IMG/VR virus record: IMGVR_UViG_3300021400_000369
Location: 1 to 64,000 of that record
Direction: 5' to 3' (one strand)
DNA from: a virus
Taxonomy: Duplodnaviria; Caudoviricetes
Length of the DNA stretch: 64,000 nt
Position 1 is the first letter of the stretch. Every line of letters begins with the position of its first letter. The notes under the pieces are model-generated. The model made no database searches. It was not told the origin of the DNA and saw only the letters and a list, made by a program, of their open reading frames with translations. Positions 6,819-23,992 of the stretch are shown piece by piece. A program made the translations under genes and the position numbers.

Positions 6819-6890
6819 ATTATCACCTTTATTTTTTTTGTTTTATATTTTTGATGAGGGAGAATATTAACTCCCAATAGTTTATTTATG

Positions 6891-7679
6891 TTATTCAATT
6901 TCTTCATCGAAGAACTCTTTAATAAATTTCATATAAAGTTTTTCTAATTCACAATGCATATCGTGAGCCCACCATTCATTAGTTGGGTTTTCTTGACCTG
7001 TATGTTTTTCAAATGTAGCTTCAAGTATCTCCCAATCAATACAACACGGTAATGTGTTATCCGCAAAGAAATCACAACAATCGTTGTCATCGTAAAGAGA
7101 TAGTCTTTGTATTTCAAGAATTCCAAGTAATTCATCTATCGGCATTAGATTGATAAATTTTTTGTAATTGAAATTATATGTGCCATTTTCGTTAGCAATG
7201 ATACATAATGGCACAAGCTTTCTTATTGTTTCTTTTGAAACTGTATGTCTACGATAATATGAGTGTCCCATTTCTTCCATTCTATCAAGAATGGTGGTAT
7301 TTTCAAGTGTTTCTGGATAATACTCTAATTTTACTTCATCAAGAAGTCGCAGAGATCTTTCCACATATTCTTCTTCGGTCATCATTTCATGATTGTCTTT
7401 GTAAACTGTACCTCCTGGTGCGGCTAAGTTCATGTAAAGTGTGTCAATATATTCCTGATATGTTTGAGTGTATGGATCACTATCTCCATCATCTTGATGG
7501 ATTACTTTTTGATTGTCATCAATGATAAAAACAATGCATGCAGTTCCGAAAAAAGGATCACGATATATGCTAATTACTTCGTTTTCTAATTCTGTCAGTA
7601 ATTGCATATTGCCTTTTGTCATTTTCATGTTTTGTGTTTTTCTTTCAATTGCGTTTTTTACTTTGTCTGCTAATACCAT
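6891..7679 (-). CDS. Hypothetical protein
   Basis: 262 aa, RBS GGTGATAAT, preceded by a family B element. Confidence 0.75.
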   Translation of the reverse strand: MVLADKVKNAIERKTQNMKMTKGNMQLLTELENEVISIYRDPFFGTACIVFIIDDNQKVIHQDDGDSDPYTQTYQEYIDTLYMNLAAPGGTVYKDNHEMMTEEEYVERSLRLLDEVKLEYYPETLENTTILDRMEEMGHSYYRRHTVSKETIRKLVPLCIIANENGTYNFNYKKFINLMPIDELLGILEIQRLSLYDDNDCCDFFADNTLPCCIDWEILEATFEKHTGQENPTNEWWAHDMHCELEKLYMKFIKEFFDEEIE

Positions 7680-7764
7680 ATTATCACCATTTAATTTTGT
7701 TTTATATATTTTTGATGAAGGAGAATATTAACTCCCAATAGTTCGACAGTCTTTATTCTATTAT

Positions 7765-8142
7765 TTAATCATCTTCCTCGCAATATCCACAATTTATGCA
7801 ATCATAATCCTCAACACCTATTTCATCGAAGAGACATATTCCTTCCCCTATATCCTGCATGAACACTTTCAGTCTGCGTATTTCGTTAAATCTTCTGAGC
7901 ACTTGCCAGATTGTAAGCTCTCCATCAGCCTCATCCCTTACTACCTTGCCATTTCTGACCTGAATCCATGTATAGTTAAAGATGTGGTCTGGATCGTCAT
8001 CATGATGTTCCAGTTCAAAGTAGGCGTATGTGTTCTCTCTAAAAGGCACACTAAAGGACCAAGACTTGAGAGTACGCAATCCTTCTGGGTCATAGTCGCT
8101 AAAATATTCATCAAACAATTCTTTTAATTCTTCTTTTTTCAT
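7765..8142 (-). CDS. Hypothetical protein with C-terminal Cys cluster
   Basis: 125 aa, C...CINCGYC, RBS GGAG. Confidence 0.7.
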   Translation of the reverse strand: MKKEELKELFDEYFSDYDPEGLRTLKSWSFSVPFRENTYAYFELEHHDDDPDHIFNYTWIQVRNGKVVRDEADGELTIWQVLRRFNEIRRLKVFMQDIGEGICLFDEIGVEDYDCINCGYCEEDD

Positions 8143-8156
8143 AATTATTTCTCCAG

Positions 8157-8462
8157 TTAGTTTATTATTAAATAGTAGTTTTCTCTGTCAATTGTTCTTC
8201 TGCCATCATCTTTACAATCCCATATCCATTGCAGGAATTGAGAGTCTTCTGCCCAGTTTTGGATTAATTGATGGTATTGCATATGTTCCTCTTCTGCAAA
8301 GTCGAATGGGTTTCTTGGCAGGTTAGCTGTGGTAAAACCTTGATGATCATAGTAACCAATGTCGGGTTCATCATCATCGATTGTTGTAATGTCCACATAT
8401 CCTTTAAGGGTTATTTGACTGTTTTCGGTGCTTACAATTTCAAAATCTACATATTCTATCAT
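8157..8462 (-). CDS. Hypothetical protein
   Basis: Start corrected to MIEYVDF (RBS GGTGAT). Confidence 0.7.
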   Translation of the reverse strand: MIEYVDFEIVSTENSQITLKGYVDITTIDDDEPDIGYYDHQGFTTANLPRNPFDFAEEEHMQYHQLIQNWAEDSQFLQWIWDCKDDGRRTIDRENYYLIIN

Positions 8463-8482
8463 TTTATCACCTTTTTGTGTAG

Positions 8483-9010
8483 TTATTCTCCTGGGCAAAT
8501 TGCTTTTCTATCATCTCTCATTTCTGATTTTTCGATGTATGGTTTTAATTCGTCATCTTGTTTACATTTTTTAATTACTGCGGTAAAGATATCTTCAATT
8601 TCTTTATCATTAAGATCTTCATACTTGTTTTCAATCATATCATTTACATATACGTCAAATTGGTTTTCAGGATATACATCATCTTCAAACCATTCTTTTT
8701 TGGCTATTCGGTATATGAAATTCGCTTTATACTCTTTTTCTTTTTCTTTAAAAAATGGATCATCTTCGTATATGTCTTTGGATAACATATCTTGGATATC
8801 ACTGCCAGATATTTTATCTAATAATTCATCAAATTTTTTAATTTCTTTTTGTGTCATTTTTCCTCTACCTACAACATAATTATAAAGGTTACTAAGACCA
8901 CTAATATGTCCTGCTGTGTATGCAGATCTCAATGCTTTGACAGTAAAAAGTGCGTCTGTTTTCCATTCTTTTCTCATTTGGTATTCTTGTTTGATTTCTT
9001 TTTTCTCCAT
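8483..9010 (-). CDS. Hypothetical protein
   Basis: Start corrected to MEKKEIK; the ORF-track N-terminus (STWRKSLKASKK) is read-through of repeat A. Confidence 0.7.
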   Translation of the reverse strand: MEKKEIKQEYQMRKEWKTDALFTVKALRSAYTAGHISGLSNLYNYVVGRGKMTQKEIKKFDELLDKISGSDIQDMLSKDIYEDDPFFKEKEKEYKANFIYRIAKKEWFEDDVYPENQFDVYVNDMIENKYEDLNDKEIEDIFTAVIKKCKQDDELKPYIEKSEMRDDRKAICPGE

Positions 9011-9088
9011 AATATCACCATTTTTTGTTTTTTTTGAGGCTTTTAGCGACTTCCTCCAGGTCGAATAATTCAACAGTTATTTATTACA

Positions 9089-9604
9089 TTATAATTTTTC
9101 ATATAATTCTTTGAGTTTTTCTTTTGAAAAATTATCTCCTTGTCCTTTCTTTTCATAATAGGCCCAAGTGTCTAAGTCAATGATAGTGTCATCACCATCT
9201 GTTTCAGAATATAGGAAAACACCTCCTACGTGGTGTATGTTTCCGTTCATATAGTGCTGAATATCACCAACACATAAGAAGTGTTGGCGAATATGCTTAC
9301 TGTTCTCTACCAACCATTCACATACTTTCTCAACCGCATTACGAGTGAGATCTTCTTCACATGATTCTATGATTTTATCTATAATTTCTTCTCTTGTTTT
9401 TTCCTTAGGCAGGGATTCCATATATCTCTTAGTCGCTTCATTTAATACTTTATCCCATATATCATCTGTGACATCTAATAGGATATCGTTCAAGTGGGTT
9501 TTATTCTCTTCAAATGATTTGCCAACACCAATTATTCCTCTTTTTTCCCATAGGGGAATGGTATCACTATTCAATATTTTATTTATAAGATTTTCGCAAT
9601 CCAT
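9089..9604 (-). CDS. Hypothetical protein
   Basis: 171 aa, RBS GGTGAT, preceded by repeat A. Confidence 0.7.
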   Translation of the reverse strand: MDCENLINKILNSDTIPLWEKRGIIGVGKSFEENKTHLNDILLDVTDDIWDKVLNEATKRYMESLPKEKTREEIIDKIIESCEEDLTRNAVEKVCEWLVENSKHIRQHFLCVGDIQHYMNGNIHHVGGVFLYSETDGDDTIIDLDTWAYYEKKGQGDNFSKEKLKELYEKL

Positions 9605-9680
9605 AACATCACCTTTTTTTGTTTTTATATTTTGAGGCTTTTCGCGACTTCCTCCAGGTCGAATAGTTCGTCAGTTGTTA

Positions 9681-10112
9681 TTAAAATCCTGTCCATTCAA
9701 TGGAATACTCATCATCAATTTCTTCCAATCCCTCTAAAAAGAACCTGATAATTTCATGATCCTCACTATAATCTGGGTCATTAAGGAAATATTTTCCTCC
9801 GTTTTTCATATTTTCTTTATCAAATTGATCAAGAACATATTTTTTGCCATCATAAAAACTACAATCATTCTCTCCATATTCAGAAAATCTCATTTCAATG
9901 ATTTGTTCAAAAATACCTTCATCAAGAATTGATGGAGGGATAAAGTATATTGTATTTTCATCTCCAATTTCTGTGTAAAAATAGAAATCAAGAATAGTGG
10001 AGATTTTTTCTACCTCTATCCCTTTTTCTTTTAATTCTGATATTTTTTCATCTACATCGCTTTTTAAAGCGACCATTTTTTTTCCATTTTCTTCTATAAT
10101 ATACTTTTCCAT
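9681..10112 (-). CDS. Hypothetical protein
   Basis: Start corrected to MEKYII; shares S.iDE.fiE.iI.MR..E with its neighbour 10134-10430. Confidence 0.7.
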   Translation of the reverse strand: MEKYIIEENGKKMVALKSDVDEKISELKEKGIEVEKISTILDFYFYTEIGDENTIYFIPPSILDEGIFEQIIEMRFSEYGENDCSFYDGKKYVLDQFDKENMKNGGKYFLNDPDYSEDHEIIRFFLEGLEEIDDEYSIEWTGF

Positions 10113-10133
10113 ATTACCACCATTCACTCATAT

Positions 10134-10430
10134 TTATCTTCTTCTGTTCCATCTGACATAAAATTTCTCACCGGCTTCTTTAAAAGCGTATTCATATGAA
10201 TCTATGTAGGATTTTTTATTTGGAAAAGCCTTTTCTAAAGCTTCCAAATTATTGTTGAAGAATTGTTTATCATCTTCATTTAATTCATAATCTTTGTTCG
10301 GTTTCATAGGTTCATCATAACGCATTTGAATCAATGGTTCGATGAACGCTTCATCAATAACACTTGATCCTATTTTAATAATTGCTTTCTTATTTTCATC
10401 TTTAAAAGTTATGTTCTGATGTAAATACAT
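10134..10430 (-). CDS. Hypothetical protein
   Basis: Start corrected to MYLHQN downstream of repeat A. Confidence 0.65.
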   Translation of the reverse strand: MYLHQNITFKDENKKAIIKIGSSVIDEAFIEPLIQMRYDEPMKPNKDYELNEDDKQFFNNNLEALEKAFPNKKSYIDSYEYAFKEAGEKFYVRWNRRR

Positions 10431-10541
10431 ATTATCACTTAATATTTTTTTGAGGCTTTTAGCGACATCCTCCAGGTCGAAAAATTCGTACAAATATCAA
10501 CAAACGAACACATCAACAAATACGCATTCGTTTGGTTACAA

Positions 10542-10736
10542 TTATTCTAATCCATTCCAATCCATGTAATGGGCTCTACGGTATTCATAATCTCTAATGT
10601 TCCGTTCAGCGATTGCTCTTTTGTATTCAGAATCTCTCGGTCCGTTGTCACACACACCGCATGTTCCGTACTCGCATTTCTCACATAACTTTGGGTTATG
10701 GTGCTCATTGTTTCCCCAGGTTTCATATTCTGTCAT
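10542..10736 (-). CDS. Small putative zinc-finger protein
   Basis: CEKC...CGVC, preceded by a family B element. Confidence 0.65.
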   Translation of the reverse strand: MTEYETWGNNEHHNPKLCEKCEYGTCGVCDNGPRDSEYKRAIAERNIRDYEYRRAHYMDWNGLE

Positions 10737-10810
10737 GATATCACTATTTTTTGTTTTTTATTATTGCATTTTTGATATGGGAGAATGCTAACTCCCAATA
10801 GTTCGACAGT

Positions 10811-12004
10811 CTAAATCATACGTGCGAGACACATAAGTTCTTTGTGGGATCGTTTGTTTAATATTCCTTCAAGATTTTTTATTGTCTCCTCGGTGATTCC
10901 ATTCTGATCTCTTGAGATGACAAGCATGATTCCGCTTAAATTAGAACTCAACCATTCATGAATTTGTTCCATGGCATATTCTTGGTCTTCTTCAAGTACT
11001 TCCAAAACATGGTCAATCGCCCATTCTCTGAATGTTTTCAGAATCTTGTCATATATTTCAGGGAACACCTCATTCCATATAATATTACGTAATTGGTCTT
11101 CTGTTAATTTTTCGAGAGCTGTACCATATAAGTCGTACTCATCATTAATCATTTCTACAATCTTATCCATTTCTTTTGTCTCATCCATTTTATCACCTAA
11201 ATCTAGTTTTAAATCATCAAACATTTCTGATATCTCATCAGCATCTTTTTCTTCATAACCATGTCCTTCAATACCCCAACTTGAGCTTGCGTAGAAATGG
11301 TTAAGATATTCTTTGAAAGTCATTGATTGAGGTATTGTATCATCTATATAGTCAGGATTTTTCATTTTTCCATAGTCATAGATTTTATTGTTTGAAATTT
11401 TCGCAACTCGATCAAATCCTGATATCTCATTATCAAATTTCAATAATTTTTTAATATTTTCTTCTGTGAGAGGTATTTTTTCAACTGTGTCGTAAATTCT
11501 GACATGTAATTCATGTCTTTTTCTTGTTTCTTCTTCCTTTTCCTTTTCAAAGACTGATTGGATTGGGGTTAAATCGTATCCCATCCAATGCTCCCAGCCA
11601 TTGTCTCCATCATCTTCTAAGCCGTTATCATCAATATCAATGGTAAAATATTTCAACTGTGGCTTTAATTCTCTTAGGTTTTCCAGTAATACTTCTTCCA
11701 ATACACATGCCTTGCCCATTTCGTATTCTTTTGGGTATCTAACATAGTCGCCTTTACGGTTCATTCTTGAACATGTTGATATGCTCAACCCAAGAGTGAT
11801 TTTATCGGTCTCGAAATCTTCAAAAACATCCAACTCATGAGGATAGAGTGGACCATCAATTTCAAATTTCTTTCCGTTCTTTATTCCATCTGAGATTTTC
11901 CAAGAGTCATCAAGAGGAAATGGACATGTGTCTTTGATGCATTGAATGGTTGAGTTTACATTTTCGATTTCTTTAATACTGTTTTTTGTCATTTTCATTT
12001 TCAT
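10811..12004 (-). CDS. Hypothetical protein (acidic, possibly a fusion of modules)
   Basis: 397 aa, RBS GAGGTGA; an internal GGTGATAAAATG at MDETKE suggests a fused former gene. Confidence 0.75.
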   Translation of the reverse strand: MKMKMTKNSIKEIENVNSTIQCIKDTCPFPLDDSWKISDGIKNGKKFEIDGPLYPHELDVFEDFETDKITLGLSISTCSRMNRKGDYVRYPKEYEMGKACVLEEVLLENLRELKPQLKYFTIDIDDNGLEDDGDNGWEHWMGYDLTPIQSVFEKEKEEETRKRHELHVRIYDTVEKIPLTEENIKKLLKFDNEISGFDRVAKISNNKIYDYGKMKNPDYIDDTIPQSMTFKEYLNHFYASSSWGIEGHGYEEKDADEISEMFDDLKLDLGDKMDETKEMDKIVEMINDEYDLYGTALEKLTEDQLRNIIWNEVFPEIYDKILKTFREWAIDHVLEVLEEDQEYAMEQIHEWLSSNLSGIMLVISRDQNGITEETIKNLEGILNKRSHKELMCLARMI

Positions 12005-12017
12005 TTTTTCACCTCAT

Positions 12018-12278
12018 TTATGAGAAATAAACCATATAGGTTTTTCCTTCTTCAATTTCTTCTTCAAGACATTTTATTAAAAATTCTATTAAAGGATTTT
12101 CAGAATATTGTCTTAAAAATTCTATTAACTCTTTCATCACATCGGAAGAATAAAAGTATCTCTTACATTCTTCTATTTCACCAAACTGTGAGAAGAATTT
12201 ATAAAATTCTTCTCTTTGACTGTAATTTATAATTTCAACGGCGTATTCTCCTTTTTCAATAGTTATTCCATAACTCAT
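12018..12278 (-). CDS. Hypothetical protein
   Basis: Start corrected to MSYGITI (RBS GGTGATAAT). Confidence 0.7.
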   Translation of the reverse strand: MSYGITIEKGEYAVEIINYSQREEFYKFFSQFGEIEECKRYFYSSDVMKELIEFLRQYSENPLIEFLIKCLEEEIEEGKTYMVYFS

Positions 12279-12289
12279 ATTATCACCAT

Positions 12290-12703
12290 TTACCAAATTT
12301 CACCAAGCATTGTAAGAAAAACTTCTTCGGGATAGGAGTCAAACTCACTTCTTGAATGATAATGATTTATTTTTTTAATATTTTTTGTCAATGTTTTTAA
12401 AAGTTCTAAATCTTCTTCGGACATATTGTTAATGCTCAACTGCCAAGTTCGATAAGGATTGTATCCTCCAATATCATCTCTTATGAATAATATACCTTCT
12501 CTCGGATCATCAGCATTGATTATCAATCCCAACTCACTTTTATATTGGGGATTTTTTTCTATATGATCCCTAACTTTTATGAAGATTTCTTCAGCTCTTC
12601 TTATGTTTTTCTCCTGATATAATTCAATCTCTTCTTTTACAATTTTTAATTCTTTTTCTAACTGTCTTTCTTTGTCTTTTAAGATTTTAATTTTCATAGT
12701 CAT
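12290..12703 (-). CDS. Hypothetical protein with N-terminal coiled coil
   Basis: Start corrected to MTMKIK downstream of repeat A. Confidence 0.7.
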   Translation of the reverse strand: MTMKIKILKDKERQLEKELKIVKEEIELYQEKNIRRAEEIFIKVRDHIEKNPQYKSELGLIINADDPREGILFIRDDIGGYNPYRTWQLSINNMSEEDLELLKTLTKNIKKINHYHSRSEFDSYPEEVFLTMLGEIW

Positions 12704-12805
12704 TTTATCACCATTTTTTTGTTTTTTTGAGGCTTTTAGCGACATCCTCCAGGTCGAAATAAAATTCGTATAAAATCTAATAAACGAACACAAACACAAA
12801 TACGT

Positions 12806-13444
12806 TTATTCGTCTTCATGTTGCATTTCACGTAATTTATTGAACAATTCACTCAGGCTTTCCTGATTGTGAATGGCTGATTTTTCAATATCATTCAACA
12901 ATTTTATATCTGCTTCGGAAATGTATTTATTTCCTGATTTGTCGTTTATCCAAGCTGTTTTGATTCCATATGCTTGAAGTTCTATGCTTTTTATAGCAAA
13001 ATACAGGGATCTTACATCCCATTTCAGTTGGACTATGTTGTCCAATCCTTTCTCTTCTTTCTTCTTATCCTCTTTATATGTTATTTTAACTGACATACTA
13101 TCTTCCTCTTCACAGAATTTAACTTCTAAATTATTATCCATTTCTTCAATTAGTTTTCCTGCATCATGAACATCTTCTTTGAAGTTTTCACCTTTCTCCA
13201 GATAATCGTGCAACTCAAACTCAATCTCGGGAATATCATCATCTACGAGCATACTATACACTTCAATATCTTTGAAATCTTCAATGGTCTTCTTGATTTC
13301 ATCCTGAAACGCTTCTGCTTGAATGTCACCATAATCACATTTGTCTTTAACTTCTGTGTTATGGTATATGCAATTCATGCATAAGTATTTTCTTTCACAT
13401 TCAGTAAAATTTTCTTTTAGACAAAGTTTACTATAATTCTTCAT
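12806..13444 (-). CDS. Hypothetical protein with N-terminal Cys cluster
   Basis: 212 aa, RBS GGTGG. Confidence 0.7.
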   Translation of the reverse strand: MKNYSKLCLKENFTECERKYLCMNCIYHNTEVKDKCDYGDIQAEAFQDEIKKTIEDFKDIEVYSMLVDDDIPEIEFELHDYLEKGENFKEDVHDAGKLIEEMDNNLEVKFCEEEDSMSVKITYKEDKKKEEKGLDNIVQLKWDVRSLYFAIKSIELQAYGIKTAWINDKSGNKYISEADIKLLNDIEKSAIHNQESLSELFNKLREMQHEDE

Positions 13445-13456
13445 AATACCACCTTC

Positions 13457-13618: not shown

Positions 13619-13691
13619 AATATCACCATTTTATTTTTTGTTATTGTATTTTTGATAAGGGAGAATACTAACTCCCAATCGTTCGACGGTC

Positions 13692-14057: not shown

Positions 14058-14067
14058 TTTTATCACC

Positions 14068-14331: not shown

Positions 14332-14397
14332 GTTTATCACCATATTTTTTTGTTTTTTATTGAGGCTTTTAACGACGTCCTCCAGGTCGAAACAATT

Positions 14398-14868: not shown

Positions 14869-14927
14869 ATTATCACCTAATGTTTTTTTGAGGCTTTTAA
14901 TGACGTCCTCCAGGTCATATTCAACTG

Positions 14928-15290: not shown

Positions 15291-15357
15291 ATTTTTCACC
15301 ATTTTTATTTTTTTTTTGAGGCTTTTAATGACGTCCTCCAGGTCATATTCAACAACT

Positions 15358-15570: not shown

Positions 15571-15605
15571 TTTATCACTTTAGATATAATTTTCAATATT
15601 ACTTT

Positions 15606-16073
15606 TTACTCCTGTTTGAAATCATTCCAACAGGAAACGCTGATATAATCTCTGATATCAGCTGAATTATTTAACATCTCATTTTCGTCATAATAATTCT
15701 GCATACGTTCGCGGCCTTTTTTATTGAGGCGTATTATCTGCAGAGTTTCTTTGCCGTCATGATGAGAACATTCCATCATCAGATGGTTGTGTTTTTCAAC
15801 ATAAAATCTGACAATGTCAGCAGCTCTCATTCCCCAATCCAGGATTTCTCTCATATTAGAGAAGAACTCTGTCATACGACCTCGGTTATCAGATCCAAGA
15901 CCATACAAATTCATACTTCCAACACACAAGCCCGCATACTTGTGTTCATTTTCCTCAAAGATGTTATTGAAATTCTCAAGGATGATGTCATACAGACTAT
16001 CAATATCCATCTTTTCAATTGTTTCCTCATCAAACATGTCATAGACATAATTTGACCATAATAATTTCTTCAT
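15606..16073 (-). CDS. Hypothetical protein
   Basis: RBS GGAGG; start at 16073 or 16082. Confidence 0.7.
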   Translation of the reverse strand: MKKLLWSNYVYDMFDEETIEKMDIDSLYDIILENFNNIFEENEHKYAGLCVGSMNLYGLGSDNRGRMTEFFSNMREILDWGMRAADIVRFYVEKHNHLMMECSHHDGKETLQIIRLNKKGRERMQNYYDENEMLNNSADIRDYISVSCWNDFKQE

Positions 16074-16090
16074 CTTATTCATCCTCCATA

Positions 16091-16627
16091 TTATTCTATT
16101 TCATTAAGAATGTTTGTTAGGTCTTCATGAAACTTGATTGTCTTGCAACAAGATTTCTTTTTCGCCCATTCCTTGGCTTTTTGTGTTCGGATGTCTATAT
16201 AATGAAGACGATCATGAACTACTTCAACCCCATTGATTTCCCTAATCATTCTTCTAACGTCAGATTCAACCTTTCCAATGTTAATATGAATATAAGAGTT
16301 AAGACCTTCTTGATATAAGGTTACTCTTTCTATATAACTTAAATTTGCCTCTCTTAAGTCTCTTTCAACGTCTTCATATGTTTGTTGGTTTAAGGCATCT
16401 TTGAGTCTTTCATTGTTTATAAATACCGCTTTGGTGGAGTAAACAAATCCATACCAATTTTCATTGTTTTGTAATATTTTGGTTATCAATTCTTCCTTTA
16501 CGTATTTTTCAAAATCGTTTTCCCCACAATCCCAATAAATGACAATATGGTCTTTTTCAATTTTTCCTCTGACGTATTTCTTTGCTCCTAATTTTCTTAT
16601 TACGGTTTTAAGTTGGTCAAACTTCAT
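16091..16627 (-). CDS. Hypothetical protein, paralog of 19591-20148
   Basis: Shared MKFDQ...T.KAKEW.KKK..CK.IKF.ED...IL.E.E. Confidence 0.75.
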   Translation of the reverse strand: MKFDQLKTVIRKLGAKKYVRGKIEKDHIVIYWDCGENDFEKYVKEELITKILQNNENWYGFVYSTKAVFINNERLKDALNQQTYEDVERDLREANLSYIERVTLYQEGLNSYIHINIGKVESDVRRMIREINGVEVVHDRLHYIDIRTQKAKEWAKKKSCCKTIKFHEDLTNILNEIE

Positions 16628-16694
16628 TTAATCTACCTCATTTTTATTTTTTTTTGAGGCTTTTAACGACATCCTCAGGTCGTATTCAACAATC

Positions 16695-17216
16695 TTATTC
16701 CCAGTCGAAACCAGCTGGTTTCCAATATACTGAGTCAACTTTCACATCTCTCACATTTGTGAGGATTGTTTTTGATGCGGCACGATTTGGATAATCATGT
16801 TGCATAAAGATGAATACATTTTTTGTAATCCTGCTGATTTTTCTGACATCAGGCATAAACACTCTGTCATCACAACCATCGTTTACAATGACATTGTTGT
16901 GTCTGCCTGCTCTCAAAAGAACAATATCGTTCTCCATCACATCCTGTGTGATGTTTAGATTTGTTTTTTCGTGAACTGTCTTTACCTTCATTTCCTCAAC
17001 ATTTGTTACATTGCGGATACTAATATGTCCTCCACATTTTTCATTAGAATCGTTCACGGGATGAATCTCCCCTGTGACTTTTCCTTGATATGTATCTAAA
17101 TTAATCGCATCCGCTTTTACACAGATGTTGTTAATTTTGATATATTTTGGCTCAAAGACAACGTCTTTGGCATTTAGTTCACCTTTTTTTATTTTTTTAA
17201 GATATTTTTTTATCAT
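16695..17216 (-). CDS. Hypothetical protein
   Basis: Start corrected to MIKKYL, preceded by repeat A. Confidence 0.7.
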   Translation of the reverse strand: MIKKYLKKIKKGELNAKDVVFEPKYIKINNICVKADAINLDTYQGKVTGEIHPVNDSNEKCGGHISIRNVTNVEEMKVKTVHEKTNLNITQDVMENDIVLLRAGRHNNVIVNDGCDDRVFMPDVRKISRITKNVFIFMQHDYPNRAASKTILTNVRDVKVDSVYWKPAGFDWE

Positions 17217-17337
17217 AGTATCTACCTCATATGTTTTGTTTTTTTTTGAGGCTTTTAGCGACTTCCTCCAGGTCGTTGAAAAATTTCGTATAAAAACGAC
17301 CAAACGAACACAACAAAGAATACGTACTTATTGGTTA

Positions 17338-17934
17338 TTATTTTCTAAAGAGTTCATCAAACTCCGCAATTTTTTTATCTGTTTGACATCTGTGCTTACA
17401 TCTTTCTTTTTCGTTAATGCTTTCTTTGCTGATTTCTACCCATCCCAACCAATTATAGTCTTCATAACTGAAGTCTTCAACAGTAACCTCTCCTTCTATG
17501 TTACATATTTTATCTATTACATAGTTTGCAACATCTAAATATCCATTATTGCCATTGAAGACAATTTTTAATTTTGTCTCAATTCCTTTTCTTTTTCTTT
17601 CTATTTCACCCCTTTTTATCCATGTATTGTCTTCTAAGATTTCTAAGATTTCTTCATATGTTTTTGCTTCAATAAGCACTTTTATGAGATTATCTAAATG
17701 GATTTTAGGGATCCATCTTTCATCTTTGACGTGATAAGCGTCTGTTAATACCAATTCATTATTGAATGTGTTTTTTATATATTTTTTGAAATCTTGATTC
17801 TGTTCTTTATCAAGCCATTTCTGTCCTTCAACCTGTGCAAAATGCCATCTAAAGAAATTTCGATCTTCAATTATCTCTATAGTACCTAATTCCTTTACCT
17901 TTTCTTTAAATTCTTCAATAGTCATTTTTATCAT
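17338..17934 (-). CDS. Hypothetical protein, paralog of 18786-19328
   Basis: Shared MIKMTIEEFKEKV, LTDAY, WIPK and RC.HRC.TDK.IA.FDE. Confidence 0.75.
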   Translation of the reverse strand: MIKMTIEEFKEKVKELGTIEIIEDRNFFRWHFAQVEGQKWLDKEQNQDFKKYIKNTFNNELVLTDAYHVKDERWIPKIHLDNLIKVLIEAKTYEEILEILEDNTWIKRGEIERKRKGIETKLKIVFNGNNGYLDVANYVIDKICNIEGEVTVEDFSYEDYNWLGWVEISKESINEKERCKHRCQTDKKIAEFDELFRK

Positions 17935-18007
17935 AATATCACCATTTTTTTATTTTCTTTTGAGGCTTTTAGCGACATCCTCCAGGTCGAAACAGTTCGT
18001 ATAAAAT

Positions 18008-18718
18008 TTATTCTTTTTCATTTCCTATGTTGTTGAATGCTTCAATGATAAATTCTGATTCTCCACATTCATCATAATAGTCTTTGATTCTTTGTTTCAA
18101 ATTTTTGCAGAATTCATCACTTGATTGGGCTTTGAAGTCGGTTAAGTCCATGTTGTGGATTATGACAATTTTACCAAACGCTTCAAATACTTGATGTTTG
18201 AATTCATCAGCTTTGTTTAGGGCGCAGAGTTTTTTGTATCCCACGCATAGTTCTTCGATCAGATCGGCATCATCCAAACAGTCATCGATTTTATTCAGGA
18301 CTTGTTTGACTTTGAAATCCTTCCATTTCTGATCATCTTCGGTTTTGAGATTCTTCAATGTAGGAATTCTCATGTTCCTGACATCTTCATTTTCAATCAG
18401 GAATACAACTTCTGGCTTGTATAAGTCAAAGCCGTATAGTTTATTCATAATCATCCAAATATCTGATAATACCGGATATTCTTCTCCAAAACTGTTTCTA
18501 CATTCTTCTCTGGCTTTTGAATACATTTCTTGGAACTCTTCCTGGGTGAAGAGTTTTTTATGTGTGAAGATCGCGTAATTGATTACACATTCTGAGATGT
18601 TTTCTTCCAAGTACACACCATAGGTGTGCATCTCTTCTTCACTATTCAGCAGTTTTTTCAAGCATTTTTTACCACATTCATCTAAATTGTTATAGATTTT
18701 GTATACATTGTTTTCCAT
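18008..18718 (-). CDS. Hypothetical protein
   Basis: Start corrected to MENNVY, preceded by repeat A. Confidence 0.7.
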   Translation of the reverse strand: MENNVYKIYNNLDECGKKCLKKLLNSEEEMHTYGVYLEENISECVINYAIFTHKKLFTQEEFQEMYSKAREECRNSFGEEYPVLSDIWMIMNKLYGFDLYKPEVVFLIENEDVRNMRIPTLKNLKTEDDQKWKDFKVKQVLNKIDDCLDDADLIEELCVGYKKLCALNKADEFKHQVFEAFGKIVIIHNMDLTDFKAQSSDEFCKNLKQRIKDYYDECGESEFIIEAFNNIGNEKE

Positions 18719-18785
18719 ATTATCACCTAATATTTGTTTGAGGCTTTTAGCGACATCCTCCAGGTCGAAACAGTTCGTATAAAAA

Positions 18786-19328
18786 CTATAAGTCAAATAT
18801 CTCATCGAATTTAGCTATCGCCTTATCTGTTTCACATCGGTGTCGACATCTGACTTTTTCATCAATATCTTTTTTACTGATTACGAGTTCGAGTCTGTAA
18901 ATTTCTACATCAATGTTTTCATTTTCTTCGAGTACACCTGCTACACATCTTTTTGCTGTTAATGCTATATCACTCCTTTCAAAATGAATTTTTGCTTGTT
19001 GAAAGATATCGTCTTTCTTTTTAATCTCAGTTTCTCTTATAAATGGTGACTGAGGGTTTATTTCTTCATAACTCTCAGCACGTATAATGTGCTGTACGAT
19101 TCTTTCGATTTCTGTTTTTGGAATCCATACATTACATTTATTAGGTTCGTCCACTAAATACGCATCTGTTAAAATTAGGTTGTAACTTAATTGTTCAACT
19201 ATGTAGTCCTTTAAATCTTTGTTCTGGCCTTTTGCTTGCCAGAAATAATATCCATTTCTTTTTATAAATGCCAGATTGTCTGTCTTTTCTACTTTTTCTT
19301 TGAACTCTTCTATTGTCATTTTTATCAT
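18786..19328 (-). CDS. Hypothetical protein, paralog of 17338-17934
   Basis: Motifs shared with the paralog; preceded by repeat A. Confidence 0.75.
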   Translation of the reverse strand: MIKMTIEEFKEKVEKTDNLAFIKRNGYYFWQAKGQNKDLKDYIVEQLSYNLILTDAYLVDEPNKCNVWIPKTEIERIVQHIIRAESYEEINPQSPFIRETEIKKKDDIFQQAKIHFERSDIALTAKRCVAGVLEENENIDVEIYRLELVISKKDIDEKVRCRHRCETDKAIAKFDEIFDL

Positions 19329-19394
19329 ACTATCACTATTCTTTTTGTTTTTTGTTGAGGCTTTTACCGACTTCCTCCAGGTCGTGTTCGACGG

Positions 19395-19589
19395 TTATTT
19401 GAAGGTCACTTCAAGGCGGCCTTCGTTGTACTCATGAGAAAAGAAAATCCCATTAAGATCTAAGTCATTAAGGAGAAGTTCCTTTTCCTCGTCATCTATA
19501 TGGCAGACCAGGGATCCGCCATTAATCGCATAAGCACCTGTGTAGTGCTTAACAATTTCATCAATTTTCACAAAGGTTTCAAAATCCAT
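19395..19589 (-). CDS. Small hypothetical protein
   Basis: Start MDFETF, RBS GGTGA. Confidence 0.6.
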   Translation of the reverse strand: MDFETFVKIDEIVKHYTGAYAINGGSLVCHIDDEEKELLLNDLDLNGIFFSHEYNEGRLEVTFK

Positions 19590-19590
19590 C

Positions 19591-20148
19591 TTATTCACCT
19601 TCTTCTACTTCTTTAAGGATTTCATTGAAATCTTCAATGAATTTTATTTCTTTGCAACTCTCTTTTTTCTTCTCCCATTCTTTTGCTTTTTCAGTTGAGA
19701 GGAAGAGGGTATTGGTCAAACGGTCTTTACGGTTTAGTTCTATTCCATCCATCCCTTCTATAGCGTCTTTTACCATATTATATACATAATGGTCCCTAAA
19801 ATACATACCAATACATTTATCACTAACATCAGTGATTGAATCTGTTACATAATCGACTTCTCCCTTGTCAAATGCTGCTGTCATCTCTCCATATGTTGGA
19901 AGTTCCAACACCTGTTTCAGTTTTGTTACATTACAACAGATTAAAACGACTCCATCATTTTGTCTAACACATTCTTCTTCAATGTTTCTCATCACATCAT
20001 ATATTTTTGTACGAATTACACTTCTAAGGGAATCCCCCTTAGCTTTTGGGTTAATGTACATATAATCTTTGTCAATTCTTGAGTTCTCGGATACATATCC
20101 TTGTTCTTGTAATTTCTTCATTATTTTTGTTGCTTGGTCAAACTTCAT
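19591..20148 (-). CDS. Hypothetical protein, paralog of 16091-16627
   Basis: Start corrected to MKFDQATK, preceded by repeat A. Confidence 0.75.
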   Translation of the reverse strand: MKFDQATKIMKKLQEQGYVSENSRIDKDYMYINPKAKGDSLRSVIRTKIYDVMRNIEEECVRQNDGVVLICCNVTKLKQVLELPTYGEMTAAFDKGEVDYVTDSITDVSDKCIGMYFRDHYVYNMVKDAIEGMDGIELNRKDRLTNTLFLSTEKAKEWEKKKESCKEIKFIEDFNEILKEVEEGE

Positions 20149-20211
20149 TTTATCACCATTTTTTTTATTTTTTGAGGCTTTTAACGACTTCCTCCAGGTC
20201 GCGTTCACATT

Positions 20212-20499
20212 TTACCAGCAGATATCCTCAGTGTGTTGGTACACTCCACCAACGTAACCGGTATCTCTAAATTTATATCCTTTTTGAATGAGGATATCTC
20301 TTAACTCTGGGACATCCTCATATTTTCCTTTATAAAGGAAAAAGAAACCACCATACTGTGGTTTGCTGGCAAAACAAACTCTGGTTCTACCTTTAGATGC
20401 CGCTTCTCTAATCTCTTCTTCTACACGTTTCAAAGCAGCTTGAATAATTTCTTCTCTACCGTTTTCGTTACTGATTCTTCTTGCTTCACTTGCATCCAT
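20212..20499 (-). CDS. Hypothetical protein
   Basis: 95 aa, RBS GAGGT, preceded by repeat A. Confidence 0.7.
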   Translation of the reverse strand: MDASEARRISNENGREEIIQAALKRVEEEIREAASKGRTRVCFASKPQYGGFFFLYKGKYEDVPELRDILIQKGYKFRDTGYVGGVYQHTEDICW

Positions 20500-20568
20500 T
20501 CTATCTACCTCTTTTTTATTTTTTTTGAGGCTTTTAACGACATCCTCCAGGTCGCATTCAACTGTTAT

Positions 20569-20745
20569 TTAAAATCTATTACTATCTCCCTCAGGTACTG
20601 TGATTAAACAGAATCCAAGCACCATCATCAGGGTGCTTATGAATAATCCGGTGTAAAGGAGTGGGTTATCCCCAATGAGGAAGATTAATCCCCCGAAGAT
20701 GAGTCCAATCAGACTCATTGTCTCCGGTCTTGGGAGGAATATCAT
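20569..20745 (-). CDS. Small two-TM membrane protein (58 aa)
   Basis: MIFLPRPETMSLIGLIFGGLIFLIG...LMMVLGFCLITV...*, ATGA overlap with the upstream gene; not in the ORF track. Confidence 0.6.
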   Translation of the reverse strand: MIFLPRPETMSLIGLIFGGLIFLIGDNPLLYTGLFISTLMMVLGFCLITVPEGDSNRF

Positions 20746-20972
20746 AAGTATTCCCCCATTTCTCTGATTAATGAGTTGATCCAGCCGGTCAGTCCGGCTT
20801 TCTCAAATTCATCAATCTCAACTTCAAATCCCATGCCGGTGTAGTACGGCATGTTTCCTCTGACTTTTGCAAGCACTTTGCGTGCTTTCTCAGCTGCTTT
20901 GCTTGCGGCTCTCTGTTCAACTGCTTCTTCGATTCCATTAAATTTAATAACTGCAACTTTTCTGCTTGTCAT
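20742..20972 (-). CDS. Hypothetical protein
   Basis: Start corrected to MTSRKV, preceded by repeat A. Confidence 0.65.
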   Translation of the reverse strand: MTSRKVAVIKFNGIEEAVEQRAASKAAEKARKVLAKVRGNMPYYTGMGFEVEIDEFEKAGLTGWINSLIREMGEYL

Positions 20973-21041
20973 TATCTCTACCTTTTTTTGTTTTTTTGTT
21001 GAGGCTTTTAACGACATCCTCCAGGTCGAATAGTTCATCAG

Positions 21042-21254
21042 TCAATATTCAATTTTAAGTCTTATGAAGTTTTCAAAACGGGTGAAGTATATTTTCTTTA
21101 TTTCTTCAACTTTACTCACTTCTTCCATCAACTTACATATTGCTTTAGATTCTCCTCGGATTTCAATTCCGTGGGAGAATCCATCATAATAATAACCTTT
21201 AATACAAAGGTCATTATCTGAACATATTTTTTTAATTTTTTCTTCGGTATTCAA
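21042..21254 (-). CDS. Small hypothetical protein
   Basis: TTG start after GGTGAT. Confidence 0.6.
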   Translation of the reverse strand: MNTEEKIKKICSDNDLCIKGYYYDGFSHGIEIRGESKAICKLMEEVSKVEEIKKIYFTRFENFIRLKIEY

Positions 21255-21262
21255 AGTATCAC

Positions 21263-21499
21263 CTATCCAAGAGACTCATATATCAATTCTTTGATTAGAT
21301 CGTCAAGAGTCATTTCTGATTCAAATGATTCCTTGAATCCTTTAAGGATTCTTTCCGGGGTACAGGCTTCTATCAAGCCATCACATTTAACCCCGGTGAT
21401 TTTGGAGTTCGCAATGATGCTGTCTCTAGCATCATCACATTTCTTCTTTAACTCTAGATATTCATCAGTAGTTAAAATTATTTCAATCTTCACTTTCAT
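21263..21499 (-). CDS. Small hypothetical protein
   Basis: 78 aa, RBS GGAGG. Confidence 0.6.
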   Translation of the reverse strand: MKVKIEIILTTDEYLELKKKCDDARDSIIANSKITGVKCDGLIEACTPERILKGFKESFESEMTLDDLIKELIYESLG

Positions 21500-21695
21500 T
21501 TTTTATTTCCTCCATTTCTTTGAGGAACTCTGGGGAGAGTTCTAAGTAACTCTCCATTTGGTTCAAAAATTCATCGAATAAATCCCATGCTTTGGCTTTG
21601 TCATTTTCTATTTCGTCAAGTTTATCTTGACAAGCGAAAATTTCATCCATACTGACACATACATGTTGTTTGTCATCTATCCATTTTTGTTCCAT
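21483..21695 (-). CDS. Small acidic hypothetical protein
   Basis: 70 aa, RBS GGTG, preceded by a family D element. Confidence 0.6.
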   Translation of the reverse strand: MEQKWIDDKQHVCVSMDEIFACQDKLDEIENDKAKAWDLFDEFLNQMESYLELSPEFLKEMEEIKNESED

Positions 21696-21883
21696 ATTTT
21701 ACACCTTTTTATAATCATGCTTCATCAGGCACGTTTCATGCCGAATCATCAGCGGAAAAAATTCAACAATCTTTTTACATACGAATGATCATGGTTCATC
21801 ATTCAAATTCACCATAACCATTCATTCGCCCAAACCCACACCACACACCATTTTTTCGCGTCCTCCATTCAACCACTCACCCC

Positions 21884-21909
21884 TGATGTCACAATTTTTT
21901 GTGACATCA
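21884..21909. promoter_or_regulatory. Perfect 11-bp inverted repeat
   Basis: TGATGTCACAA-TTTT-TTGTGACATCA. Confidence 0.4.
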
Positions 21910-21934
21910 AGGGAACATTTTGATAATCAATCTA

Positions 21935-22109
21935 CTACATATTATCACCATTTAATTTTGTTTTATATTTTTGATAAGGGAGAATATCAACTCCCAAGTT
22001 CGACAGTCTCATTCTTCCACAACCATTGTTTATCCTACATATTATCACCATTTAATTTTGTTTTATATTTTTGATAAGGGAGAATATCAACTCCCAAGTT
22101 CGACAGTCT
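21935..22109 (-). repeat. 75-bp identical direct repeat at 100-bp period (family B element + RBS + ATG-TAG)
   Basis: 21935-22009 equals 22035-22109. Confidence 0.9.
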
Positions 22110-23386: not shown

Positions 23387-23466
23387 TTTTATCACCATTG
23401 TTATCATTGGATTTTTAAGACTCACCATGTCAAATCCTTGTTTTAATGGACATTATATGCAATAAA

Positions 23467-23928: not shown

Positions 23929-23992
23929 GTTCTCACCTTTTTTAACATGCTTCATCAGGCACACCTCATGCCGAATCATAAGCACAATATAT

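Follow-up and report, generated by a model that had tools for sequence, protein, structure and literature searches.

A repeated RNA pseudoknot between the early genes of a methanogen virus and in other tailed viruses

Family B is a previously uncatalogued RNA motif in tailed viruses of both Bacteria and Archaea, a 33-base H-type pseudoknot, of which one methanogen virus has six copies in the gaps between its early genes. All six lie inside the 64,000-nucleotide stretch analysed here (the window) and none elsewhere in the 97-kb virus record. Our tentative view is that Family B is a portable boundary element, acting in cis to insulate or protect the RNA that follows it, and that its DNA repeats double as cassette-shuffling sites.

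Copies in the window and their fold

On the minus strand the Family B consensus reads U-GGGAG-UUR-NNAUU-CUCCY-NNAUCAAA-AAUNN. A first-pass annotation of the window had placed six minus-strand copies and described their helices and loops; all six were found, pattern search and shuffles agree, and its statements on S1, L1, S2 and L3 hold on re-reading the copies. S1 is GGGAG/CUCCC in five copies and GGGAG/CUCCU in one, L1 is UUA in four and UUG in two, S2 is AUAUU/AAUAU in four with one copy each of GCAUU/AAUGC and GUAUU/AAUAC, and L3 is 8 nt long and ends in CAAA in six of six. The single S1 outlier forms a G.U pair on the minus strand and would give A.C on the plus strand, as had been noted for this copy, at 7706. 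Allowing at most one mismatch, GGGAG-N8-CTCCC has nine matches in the window against 0.69 expected, a count that none of 100 shuffles reaches; six of the nine are Family B, and the other three (23521, 55583, 61634) are unrelated to it. Over the whole 97,018-bp record there are six matches, all on the minus strand and all in the window, versus one for a backwards control pattern. Copies 5 and 6 are the two halves of one tandem duplication (100 bp, 95% identity), which reduces the number of independent copies in the window from six to five. Copy 5, with its ATG-TAG, is an empty adapter.

Table 1. Family B and Family A elements in the window, with the leader and flank of two copies
Feature	Coordinates	Strand	Letters	Neighbouring genes	CM R1 (bits)
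Leader of copy 1	6816..6843	-	A-rich spacer, GGUGAU Shine-Dalgarno, ATG	ATG of ORF 6165-6818	
Family B copy 1	6844..6876	-	U GGGAG UUA AUAUU CUCCC UCAUCAAA AAUAU A	begins 15 nt past stop of ORF 6891-7679; ends 26 nt 5' of ATG at 6818	54.9
Family B copy 2	7705..7737	-	S1 GGGAG/CUCCU	3' end 26 nt before ATG at 7679	51.2
Shared 5' flank	7738..7754	-	(AG)ACUGUCGAACUAUU		
Family A	9035..9064	-	CGAC CUG GAGG AA GUCG CUAAAAG CCUC		
Family A	9633..9662	-			
Family A	10451..10480	-			
Family B copy 3	10765..10797	-	S2 GCAUU/AAUGC	begins 14 nt past stop of ORF 10811-12004; ends 29 nt before ATG at 10736	53.4
Family A	12728..12757	-			
Family B copy 4	13645..13677	-	S2 GUAUU/AAUAC	begins 15 nt past stop; ends 27 nt before ATG at 13618	57.0
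Family A	14361..14390	-			
Family A	14889..14918	-	S1 UGAC/GUCA, compensated		
Family A	15317..15346	-	S1 UGAC/GUCA, compensated		
Family A	16655..16683	-	loop 1 with 1-nt deletion		
Family A	17247..17276	-			
Family A	17961..17990	-			
Family A	18739..18768	-			
Family A	19356..19385	-			
Family A	20173..20202	-			
Family A	20526..20555	-			
Family A	21000..21029	-			
Family B copy 5	21964..21996	-	L1 UUG	then GGUGAU and ATG-TAG start-stop	55.7
Family B copy 6	22064..22096	-	L1 UUG	begins 13 nt past stop of ORF 22109-23386; then GGUGAU and ATG-TAG	55.7

Is the element folded as RNA or as DNA? Twenty Family B sequences from ten lineages share a layout of 32-33 nt, with a 5-bp S1, L1 UUN, a 5-bp S2 that stacks directly on S1 with no unpaired nucleotide between S2 and S1', and an A-rich L3 of 8 nt. 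In these sequences 98.9% of paired cells pair, the exceptions including an A.C mismatch in one member (L087) and a U-U at the outer S1 pair in another (L228). Both sides change in six of the ten pairs, two in S1 (compensatory AGGAG/CUCCU and CCGAG/CUCGG) and four in S2, for which ten of the twelve sequences seen across the family are fully complementary. Covariation is 0.615 against 0.123 when shuffled, with 0 of 500 shuffles as high and slid controls at 0.181 or below. All copies are in sense orientation relative to the genes or tRNAs beside them, and four cells hold wobbles readable as G.U on the sense strand only, versus one A.C cell (again L087). Nested folding yields weak z-scores (-0.5 to -2.0), as the program used has no means of scoring pseudoknots. 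At the level of sequence, the covariation establishes Family B as a sense-strand RNA H-type pseudoknot. The proposal that it is an RNA structure and not a DNA operator thus gains support from double changes in both helices and constant co-directionality; the three compensated base pairs in six copies from which that proposal had started were thin alone.

Distribution and genomic setting

Searches with the paired positions left free placed Family B in nine further virus lineages, three of them with copies in tRNA clusters. A metagenome scan that put no constraint on any of the 8 loop positions or on the S2 3' strand gave 13 unique matches with L1 starting UU and S1' CUCCC, and in these S2 pairs at 5/5 positions in ten, 4/5 in one and 2/5 in two; among the other 36 matches, S2 pairs at 5/5 in one. 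Likewise, an IMG/VR scan with the outer S1 pairs freed yielded four new matches, three with fully paired S2, two of which also have a compensated S1. By CM, 18 members score 48-57 bits versus 26 bits or less for everything else. Part of the letter conservation in L1 and L3 was imposed by the search patterns used; conservation of the L1 UU and of L3 positions 1 and 2 is seen although the metagenome pattern left them free. No family of Rfam 15, the comparison proposed in the first-pass annotation, matches Family B even at E<=10 on 81 nt, which excludes membership of the preQ1-I, ToxI and frameshift families. None of 185,579 species genomes matches the pattern; hence no array of B-like repeats was found, and on this search Family B is not cellular. 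Its strand, positions and distribution can be read directly from the sequences.

A pseudomurein-binding repeat protein and an archaeal histone are among the products of the virus, whose terminase comes closest to the one in Methanobacterium virus PhiF1. These features support the earlier guess of a methanogen host and point to a pseudomurein methanogen and a Methanobacteriales virus. In this virus the elements are confined to the early array; the plus-strand structural genes, which run from ~29.9 kb to the end of the record at 97 kb, have none.

In 13 of 13 mRNA settings without an intervening hairpin, the 3' end of the knot lies 22-29 nt before the ATG (the six window copies, two of them by eye, L089 twice, and L078, L105, L106, L226 and L227), and in well-called cases the upstream stop is 7-28 nt from the knot. 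The leader of spacer, GGUGAU and ATG seen at copy 1 has the same layout downstream of every Family B copy. In tRNA clusters the knot ends 6 nt (L113) or 7 nt (L076) before a tRNA, and in L113 it fills the gap between tRNA-Glu and tRNA-Phe, starting 1-2 nt past the last base of the upstream tRNA. The genes downstream of Family B are unrelated ORFans or tRNAs.

The same slot is occupied in the window by 15 copies of a sister module, Family A, so that A and B together have 21 copies in the early region. All 15 window copies of Family A lie 21-31 nt 5' of the ATG; the distance is 22-25 nt in five GC-rich phage loci that have no Shine-Dalgarno, and in L067 the element ends 3 nt before tRNA-Leu. The downstream spacer, GGUGAU and ATG are common to both families, and the 5' flank to many copies: the tabulated flank or a close variant precedes five of six Family B copies, the one at 6875 retaining only its last ~7 nt, and a ACUGUUGAAU-type variant lies 5' of many, not all, Family A copies. 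Families A and B appear to be interchangeable modules.

The repeated DNA unit spans the ATG to the 5' flank; in a relative (L084), positions 1967-2034 align to window 6815-6882 and also to 7676-7743. At the place where the window carries two B copies with ORF 6891-7679 between them, this relative carries a single B copy, evidently the outcome of one cassette gain or loss between two copies.

A boundary module and its alternatives

How might such an element act? The probable role of Family B is to mark where each expression unit begins and to shield that start. It would form the 5' edge of a standard expression adapter, pseudoknot, A-rich unstructured spacer, GGUGAU and AUG, that heads the gene cassettes of the early minus-strand ORFan array. 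Placed just outside the footprints of both the upstream terminating and the downstream initiating ribosome, the knot would stay folded, and could keep the ribosome-loading zone, or the pre-tRNA leader, from pairing with upstream sequence; it may also block entry of 5'-to-3' decay into the downstream RNA. It would work in cis and need no host-specific factor, and the ~68-bp repeated DNA units may also serve as recombination substrates by which cassettes are added, removed or swapped. The first-pass annotation had rightly labelled function as inference, and we likewise infer the insulation, the protection and the independence from any factor. Several points weigh against the boundary reading. 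The RNA runs covered, all of them contigs, showed no transcript ends. Some Family A copies have a TATA-like octamer 12-20 nt upstream, so host transcription could start inside the element and omit the knot from primary transcripts. Insulation alone does not obviously need the conserved L1 and L3 letters, a role centred on translation leaves the tRNA-adjacent copies unexplained, and a protective role leaves unexplained why most spacers in tRNA clusters are without Family B.

The conserved loop letters would also fit a small RNA acting in trans, an abundant early decoy or aptamer able to bind and titrate either a small molecule or some conserved factor of the host or the virus; we consider this unlikely, if worth keeping in mind. 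In tRNA clusters RNase Z and RNase P would release such an RNA, and in mRNAs cleavage within the A-rich spacers would do so; normal tRNA processing at L113 would free an RNA of ~37 nt, and the Family A copy before tRNA-Leu and the 21 early copies of the two families fit this as well. A phrog_850 'RNA-binding protein' (DUF2828/DUF7788) is common to the two long B-bearing records (36% identity over 506 aa). However, 50 other virus records encoding DUF2828 have no true B element (the top score, 25.7 bits, belongs to a degenerate variant), 80 loci have none within 10 kb of the DUF2828 gene, no partner was identified, and the fixed gap to start codons, 22-29 nt, favours a cis role in mRNAs.

That same constant distance, the position of the knot at the 5' edge of an unstructured A-rich leader reaching the ribosome-binding site, and the confinement to the early array would accord with a translational operator of the T4 gene-32/RegA kind. 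There the knot would nucleate cooperative binding of a viral SSB or repressor along the A-rich spacer, the bound protein covering the Shine-Dalgarno and silencing every tagged early gene at once; Family A of the GC-rich phages does sit within the module encoding an SSB-like protein. We hold this improbable: no candidate repressor common to Family B carriers was found, the tRNA-adjacent copies offer nothing to repress, and the spacer in the GC-rich phages is CA-rich, not A/U-rich.

It is more doubtful that the pairing takes place in DNA, as a virus-specific promoter or operator, or as a recombination site folded as single-stranded DNA like integron attC. The elements bound cassettes, one of which was gained or lost between two copies, contig joints of relatives fall in the adjacent spacers (a weak sign, as these are contigs placed at 80% likeness), and structure-specific DNA sites can also covary. 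In the window, the S2 3' strand of Family B with the A/T-rich letters after it resembles a TATA box ~25 nt before the ATG. This strand is GC-rich in other lineages and therefore cannot be a TATA box, a transcript starting 25 nt past the element would omit the Shine-Dalgarno, and the carriers infect different domains with different transcription machinery. Moreover, both interleaved helices covary, for which a simple hairpin site has no need, and the 97-kb record, 66% complete, yielded neither an integrase nor an HUH enzyme.

Least probable, and only slightly credible, is that Family B senses a ligand as a riboswitch akin to the preQ1-I fold, or cuts at its own edge as a very small self-cleaving ribozyme: the layout resembles preQ1-I, and the L113 element sits where 3'-processing ribozymes are known, directly after tRNAs in phage tRNA clusters, but the Rfam search was negative, S2 and S1' abut with no unpaired nucleotide, the knot overlaps no expression platform, the genes that follow it are unrelated, and to our knowledge every known self-cleaving class has extra helices, which the 33-nt Family B lacks.

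Comparison with known systems

Family B had been likened to luteoviral, preQ1-I and ToxI pseudoknots, a likeness that stands for size and topology and fails for membership in every test. PreQ1-I is the smallest known natural H-type pseudoknot aptamer. In its ~33 nt, a first helix of 5 bp is followed by a U-rich loop of 3 nt, the 3' tail closes a short second helix, and the third loop is A-rich. Family B is alike in size and in the layout of helices and loops; it differs in having no Rfam match, an invariant U-A pair instead of an unpaired loop between S2 and S1', a ribosome-binding site outside the knot, no link to queuosine genes, and many copies before unrelated ORFans and tRNAs. ToxI-type antitoxin repeats and RNA anti-CRISPRs (solitary repeat units, Racr; PMC10651486) are likewise short structured virus-encoded RNAs and possible decoys. 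Unlike ToxI, Family B has neither a tandem 34-36-nt array nor a ToxN gene, and no CRISPR-repeat model matches it.

Luteoviral frameshift pseudoknots and exoribonuclease-resistant RNAs have a compact fold that resists unwinding from the 5' side, and Family B shares the compact knot with an A-rich loop able to occupy the minor groove of a G-C-rich helix. In contrast to the frameshift knots it follows stop codons and has no slippery site, and in contrast to flaviviral xrRNA it lacks the ring topology, its nuclease resistance being putative. The T4 gene 32 leader pseudoknot, a translational operator, and the tisB standby-site pseudoknot each stand, as Family B does, at the 5' border of an unstructured leader to the ribosome-binding site. 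Each of those serves a single gene and has a known protein partner (gp32 or ribosomal protein S1), whereas Families A and B head 21 cassettes in one virus, with carriers in two domains and some copies before tRNAs.

In the hyperplastic regions of T4-type phages, PeSL (promoter-early plus stem-loop) units are repeated between genes and bound ORFan cassettes, and recombination adds or removes genes. The Family A and B units resemble them as intergenic repeats bounding small ORFan cassettes, with gene gain and loss by recombination. PeSL is a DNA promoter with a terminator hairpin in one phage group; in Family B a promoter is only putative, and the core is a covarying RNA pseudoknot present in unrelated viruses.

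Fold and strand of the Family B element

We find that Family B, a 33-nt element of this tailed virus, is a real and new RNA motif as judged by sequence comparison, which strongly supports its fold and shows an unusual distribution. A pattern search of the window recovers the six copies listed in the first-pass annotation, all on the minus strand, and no further copy in the whole 97,018-bp record, whose first 64 kb make up the window. The pattern GGGAG-N8-CTCCC, with at most one mismatch, occurs nine times in the window, against 0.69 expected; six of the nine are Family B, and none of 100 shuffled sequences reaches that count. On the minus strand each copy reads U-GGGAG-UUR-NNAUU-CUCCY-NNAUCAAA-AAUNN, in the order S1, L1, S2, S1' and L3, followed by the 3' strand of S2. 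The second helix is AUAUU/AAUAU in four copies, GCAUU/AAUGC in one and GUAUU/AAUAC in one, exactly as first noted, and the G.U pair ascribed to the copy at 7705-7737 does exist on the minus strand only. Two of the copies are the halves of a 100-bp tandem duplication, so that the independent copies in the window number five, with three compensated pairs; taken alone, the window copies are suggestive of the fold, not conclusive. Both duplicated units continue into GGUGAU, ATG and an immediate TAG, and are expression adapters that lack a gene.

A scan of metagenome contigs that fixed only UGGGAG, CUCCY and AUCAAAA, leaving eight loop positions and the 3' strand of S2 free, returned 49 loci. Thirteen unique matches also have an L1 that starts with UU and CUCCC as S1', and their S2 pairs at all five positions in ten, at four of five in one (L087) and at two of five in two (L083, L096); among the remaining 36 matches one has all five S2 pairs. 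The paired members bring in new second helices: ACGCU/AGCGU, AACAU/AUGUU, CCAGU/ACUGG, GGCGU/ACGUC (with one G.U) and (A)GGCU/AGCC(C). A stricter pattern found a single contig in IMG/VR, locus L122 of a complete 142-kb phage (G001; S2 GCGGU/ACCGC), and had no match in the genomes of 185,579 species of Bacteria and Archaea. Since these patterns had fixed S1, the last IMG/VR scan freed its two outer pairs and gave four new matches: L226 (S1 AGGAG/CUCCU, S2 CCCAU/AUGGG), L227 (CCGAG/CUCGG, CCUGU/ACAGG), L228 (UGGAG/CUCCU with an outer U-U, AUUCU/AGAGU) and L229, which was discarded as a probable chance match, with two of five S2 pairs and the outer S1 pair unpaired. With a covariance model trained on 16 sequences, 18 members score 48-57 bits and nothing else exceeds 26 bits. 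The alignments exclude L083 and L096 (23.2 and 22.3 bits, two of five S2 pairs each) and L079 (L1 AGG, 21.2 bits). A degenerate variant scoring 25.7 bits lies at 1500-1545 of locus L222, in a 402-kb phage; its S2 is identical to that of L122, its S1' is weakened and its L3 is extended to about 16 nt. Two patterns gave no members: TTGGGAGTT-N5-TCTCCC, the first used on IMG/VR, matched 52 loci, none with the L3 or S2 features, which were judged chance, and a pattern requiring five A's after AUC, which was too strict, matched two loci, both without S2 pairing. Searches of IMG/VR with ORF 6891-7679 or the terminase found no relatives of the window virus.

In the covariation alignment (20 sequences, 19 distinct) 98.9% of 190 cells pair, and six of the ten pairs change on both sides, two in S1 and four of the five in S2. 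Covariation scores 0.615; shuffled alignments give 0.123, none of 500 being as high, and controls in which the partner was slid by one to three columns stay at or below 0.181. Within S1, pair 7-24 is GC in 15 sequences and AU, CG, GU and unpaired in one each, and pair 8-23 is GC in 18 and CG in one. Given that both interleaved helices carry compensatory changes, both are supported, and hence the H-type RNA pseudoknot that had been proposed from the window. The invariance of the S1 core, the L3 letters and L1 is partly ascertainment, because the search patterns demanded them: every pattern that yielded outside members required the S1 core GAG/CUC and the L3 letters UAUCAAAA, the two IMG/VR patterns required UU in L1, and the metagenome pattern fixed more of S1 and S1' but put no constraint on L1 or on the first two L3 positions.

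The loops are compatible with the fold. L1 (3 nt over 5 bp) and L3 (8 nt over 5 bp) are long enough, by the usual steric rule, to span S2 and S1 respectively; there is no nucleotide between S2 and S1', and a U-A pair stands invariably at the junction. All copies run in the direction of their neighbours, the six in the window with the minus-strand genes, three elsewhere (L076, L113, L122) with adjacent tRNAs and six (L078, L105, L106, L089, L097, L087) with flanking ORFs. Among the wobble cells four read G.U on the sense strand and one (L087) reads A.C. The sense-strand transcript is the simplest place for the fold. An alternative pairing of L3 with the Shine-Dalgarno sequence, computed as nested folds of the window copies, gains little energy, is impossible in lineages with other Shine-Dalgarno sequences, and was rejected.

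Neither Family B nor its sister element, Family A, matches any Rfam family, which bears out the expectation that no known family would be found, and we found no description of the Family B motif in the literature. It may be listed in a catalogue that holds over ten thousand candidate RNAs of viruses (PMC10690425); the motif strings are absent from the searchable part of its supplementary files, which does not cover the probable alignments.

Genomic setting, sister families and cassette turnover

In the window the repeated unit runs from a 5' flank through the knot and an A-rich spacer to GGUGAU and AUG, and the flank, (AG)ACUGUCGAACUAUU, begins at or just past the upstream stop codon. The distance from the 3' end of the knot to the start codon is 22-29 nt in all 13 mRNA settings without an intervening hairpin, and these span four lineages with different Shine-Dalgarno sequences; at L097 it is 66 nt, about 40 nt of which is a hairpin. 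In well-called cases the knot follows the upstream stop codon by 7-28 nt. Such regular distances suggest that ribosomes terminating upstream or initiating downstream just fail to reach the knot, as can be gauged from the established extents of the ribosome footprint. Before tRNAs, the knot at L113 fills the spacer between tRNA-Glu and tRNA-Phe, 1-2 nt after the first and 6 nt before the next, that at L076 ends 7 nt before a tRNA, and that of the 142-kb phage ends about 47 nt before tRNA-Lys. Outside tRNA clusters, Family B occurs only in early or replication regions, and the genes downstream of it are Pfam-less ORFans or tRNAs. One RNA contig ends at 10786, inside the copy at 10765-10797 (these are assembled contigs, whose ends are not readable as transcript ends).

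From position 1 to about 26,200 nearly all genes lie on the minus strand, most of them after GGTGAT and ATG. Five of the 46 minus-strand proteins scanned have an above-threshold Pfam match, and the array has the look of an early ORFan region that changes fast. Encoded in the record are a pseudomurein-binding repeat protein, baseplate and tail proteins, an anaerobic ribonucleotide reductase, an archaeal histone-fold protein, a C5 methylase and an ASCH protein; the best named relative of its terminase is that of Methanobacterium virus PhiF1 (30% identity), and runs recorded as gut and bovine-gut metagenomes contain near-identical DNA. The host, as predicted from sequence, is a pseudomurein-walled methanogen. 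Two GIY-YIG endonuclease genes lie on either side of the terminase and portal region. The idea that a viral RNA polymerase initiates at hairpin promoters was considered and rejected: a stretch of the 4,076-aa tail protein resembles RNA polymerase Rpb1 domain 5 below threshold (26.7 bits, cut-off 28.5), and there is no convincing catalytic aspartate motif anywhere in the record.

Coordinates of repeat families and other features in the window
Feature	Position	Strand	Remarks
Family A, GACCUGGAGGANGUCNNUAAAAGCCUC	9035-21029	minus	15 copies; Family B slot
Family C, GACAUGGUGAGUCUUAAAAAUCCAA	26218-26242, 25828-25852, 25249-25273, 23407-23431, 1616-1640	minus	five copies
Family D, GAUUCGGCAUGA...GUGCCUGAUGAAGCAUG, roughly 40 nt	about 25640-25690, 23960-23980, 21700-21750	minus	three copies before small genes
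Tandem duplication, 100 bp	21935-22131		95% identical; spans entire Family B adapter
CRISPR-repeat-like stretch	23429-23464	minus	Rfam CRISPR-DR7, 21.1 bits, E 0.072, below threshold
tRNA-3'-half-like repeats	about 23440-23600, 25275-25330	minus	T-arm GGUUCGAUUCC and acceptor-like end
Archaeal histone-fold protein gene	56-268	minus	
GIY-YIG endonuclease gene	29451-29891	minus	
GIY-YIG endonuclease gene	32879-33547	plus	
Tail (tape-measure-like) protein, 4,076 aa	42419-54649	plus	RNase_T exonuclease domain
DUF2828/DUF7788 protein	26632-28203	plus	vWA-type DxSGSM motif; phrog_850, E 5e-127

Family A reads CGAC-CUG-GAGG-AN-GUCG-YUAAAAG-CCUC, shares the spacer of Family B and, in many copies, has a variant of its 5' flank. 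It can be drawn in the Family B topology, with CG, UA, GC and AU at one S1 pair and an invariant S2. ATG follows 21-31 nt after all 15 window copies, and 22-25 nt after the element in five GC-rich phage loci without a Shine-Dalgarno sequence; the upstream stop codon lies as close as 5-6 nt before it. The exact pattern occurs in 12 IMG/VR loci and also in two cyanobacterial genomes. In GC-rich phages a SWIM-finger gene begins about 22 nt after it, and in two contigs that carry a giant-virus bin label tRNA-Leu follows it at 3 nt. Cultured phages gave no match, and the one plasmid candidate, a 29-nt match in a Shinella replicon (E 0.08), is without the 3' strand of S2 and was rejected. Family C copies lie 15-30 nt upstream of GGUGAU and ATG, and the five in the window give no convincing pairing or covariation. 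The CRISPR-repeat-like stretch occurs once in the window, where it overlaps the start of one Family C copy, and could be a solitary repeat unit; UUGAAAU precedes two other Family C copies. Neither ARAGORN nor Rfam calls a tRNA in the tRNA-3'-half-like repeats, which could be attachment-site remnants.

The repeats clearly take part in the gain, loss and exchange of cassettes. A relative about 90% identical in shared genes (L084) has a single Family B unit in place of the two that enclose ORF 6891-7679 in the window, together with that ORF, and is also without ORF 5530-5838; its gaps relative to the window are 5543-5829 and 6883-7675, the second exactly between two Family B units. In a 2.5-kb relative (L089) a Family B unit follows the homologue of ORF 15606-16073, a gene that has no element after it in the window. 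In four other gut runs contigs break or join at element-adjoining spacers, for example 7698 to 23408 and 9018 to 17945 (80% likeness), a weak hint of cassette exchange, because contigs can break at repeats. Such turnover may be a consequence of their being repeats rather than their purpose.

Possible functions

Any account of what Family B does has to explain a compact, well-conserved fold on the sense strand, always at the same position between cistrons or ahead of tRNAs, carried by viruses of both domains, interchangeable with a second knot and confined to certain regions. We infer, with slightly less than even confidence, that Family B is a boundary module acting in cis, without need of a host-specific factor. 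The knot would stay folded between ribosomes and keep upstream RNA from pairing with the ribosome-loading zone of the following cistron or with the leader of a following tRNA, and it might also block 5'-to-3' decay. A bolder proposal, which we think doubtful though worth stating, is that Families A and B are the first host-independent RNA 'punctuation mark' common to bacteriophages and archaeal viruses, in the form of a minimal triple-helix pseudoknot. The knot would either stop 5'-to-3' exoribonucleases (RNase J, for example), as a prokaryotic counterpart of viral xrRNA, or be released by tRNA-processing enzymes as an abundant early decoy RNA. If true, each shuffled gene cassette or tRNA would be self-sufficient whatever lies upstream.

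That Family B acts as a released decoy or aptamer RNA is the foremost of the rivals, and an unlikely one. RNA anti-CRISPRs are like host CRISPR repeats, whereas Family B has no match in the species genomes by exact pattern, a search that misses diverged repeats, and no CRISPR-DR model matches it in an Rfam search around the copy at 13645-13677. This comparison draws on the Racr paper (PMC10651486), those with other known systems on general background. A decoy or sensor would point to a factor common to both domains that viruses target early in infection.

Less likely still is an operator bound by a viral repressor, as in T4 gene 32. As in that operator, the Family B knot marks the 5' edge of an unstructured leader that extends to the ribosome-binding site, but no candidate for the cognate protein is common to the carriers apart from DUF2828, which does not track with the element. 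Two long records carrying Family B (G000 and G001) have in common only ribonucleotide reductase and this DUF2828/DUF7788 protein, labelled 'RNA-binding protein' in PHROGs and 36% identical between them over 506 aa. As a partner of Family B the protein was rejected, since no true copy occurs in 50 other viruses that encode it, nor in 80 flanking loci. In the window virus its gene lies in a segment with a GC content of 0.47, within a virus of 0.33, and the protein has at least 499 relatives in IMG/VR.

A promoter or recombination site acting at the DNA level is improbable. The 3' strand of S2 is A/T-rich in the window and might pass for a TATA box, but it is GC-rich in five outside members (L097, L113, L122, L226, L227), and the hosts of the carriers come from two domains. 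Integron attC sites go with a cognate integrase encoded nearby, and no recombinase family is represented among the 86 proteins scanned in this record, which is only 66% complete. A single-stranded-DNA site is a minor rival. Least probable of all is a riboswitch or small ribozyme. The window has no preQ1-I match at the gathering score.

To our knowledge, very few structured RNA motifs from archaeal viruses have been described, and hardly any of them also occur in bacteriophages. Family B is small, its fold is well supported, and one virus holds six copies, or 21 counting the sister family. If it insulates or protects without a host factor, it would explain how rapidly shuffled early-gene cassettes work in any neighbourhood, and would be a natural counterpart of synthetic-biology insulators and a compact part for use in Bacteria and Archaea, methanogens included.

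Likeness to known systems

The element had been likened to luteoviral pseudoknots, preQ1-I aptamers and ToxI repeats. In shape it is indeed closest to preQ1-I and the luteoviral frameshift knots; the likeness ends there, for it lacks the tested defining features of preQ1-I, ToxI and frameshift knots, as it does those of RNA anti-CRISPRs and attC sites. In preQ1-I an unpaired cytosine between the helices pairs with the ligand, whereas in Family B that nucleotide is missing and S2 abuts S1'. The aptamer lies upstream of queuosine genes, with the ribosome-binding site or terminator inside the switch; Family B stands before ORFans or tRNAs, and its knot ends ahead of the Shine-Dalgarno sequence, itself within the 22-29-nt leader. 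The 81 nt around the copy at 13645-13677 gave only two spurious Rfam matches at E<=10. Luteoviral -1 frameshifting uses a slippery heptamer 5-8 nt upstream of the knot in overlapping frames, whereas Family B follows a stop codon by 7-28 nt and no slippery site is seen in the letters upstream of it. ToxI repeats, 34-36 nt long, stand head to tail directly before a ToxN-family gene, whereas Family B copies are spaced 100 to 8,319 nt apart (start coordinates), no ToxN family member is among the 46 array proteins, and no Rfam family matches.

The placement of Family B is closest to that of the T4 gene 32 leader knot and the tisB standby knot. Its behaviour in the genome is closest to that of the PeSL cassettes of T4-type phages. 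PeSL units carry the promoter of the gene that follows. In the window few TATA-like octamers were found, some of them 12-20 nt upstream of Family A copies. As with PeSL, a repeated intergenic unit bounds ORFan cassettes, one of which, ORF 6891-7679, is absent from the relative L084 together with one Family B copy.
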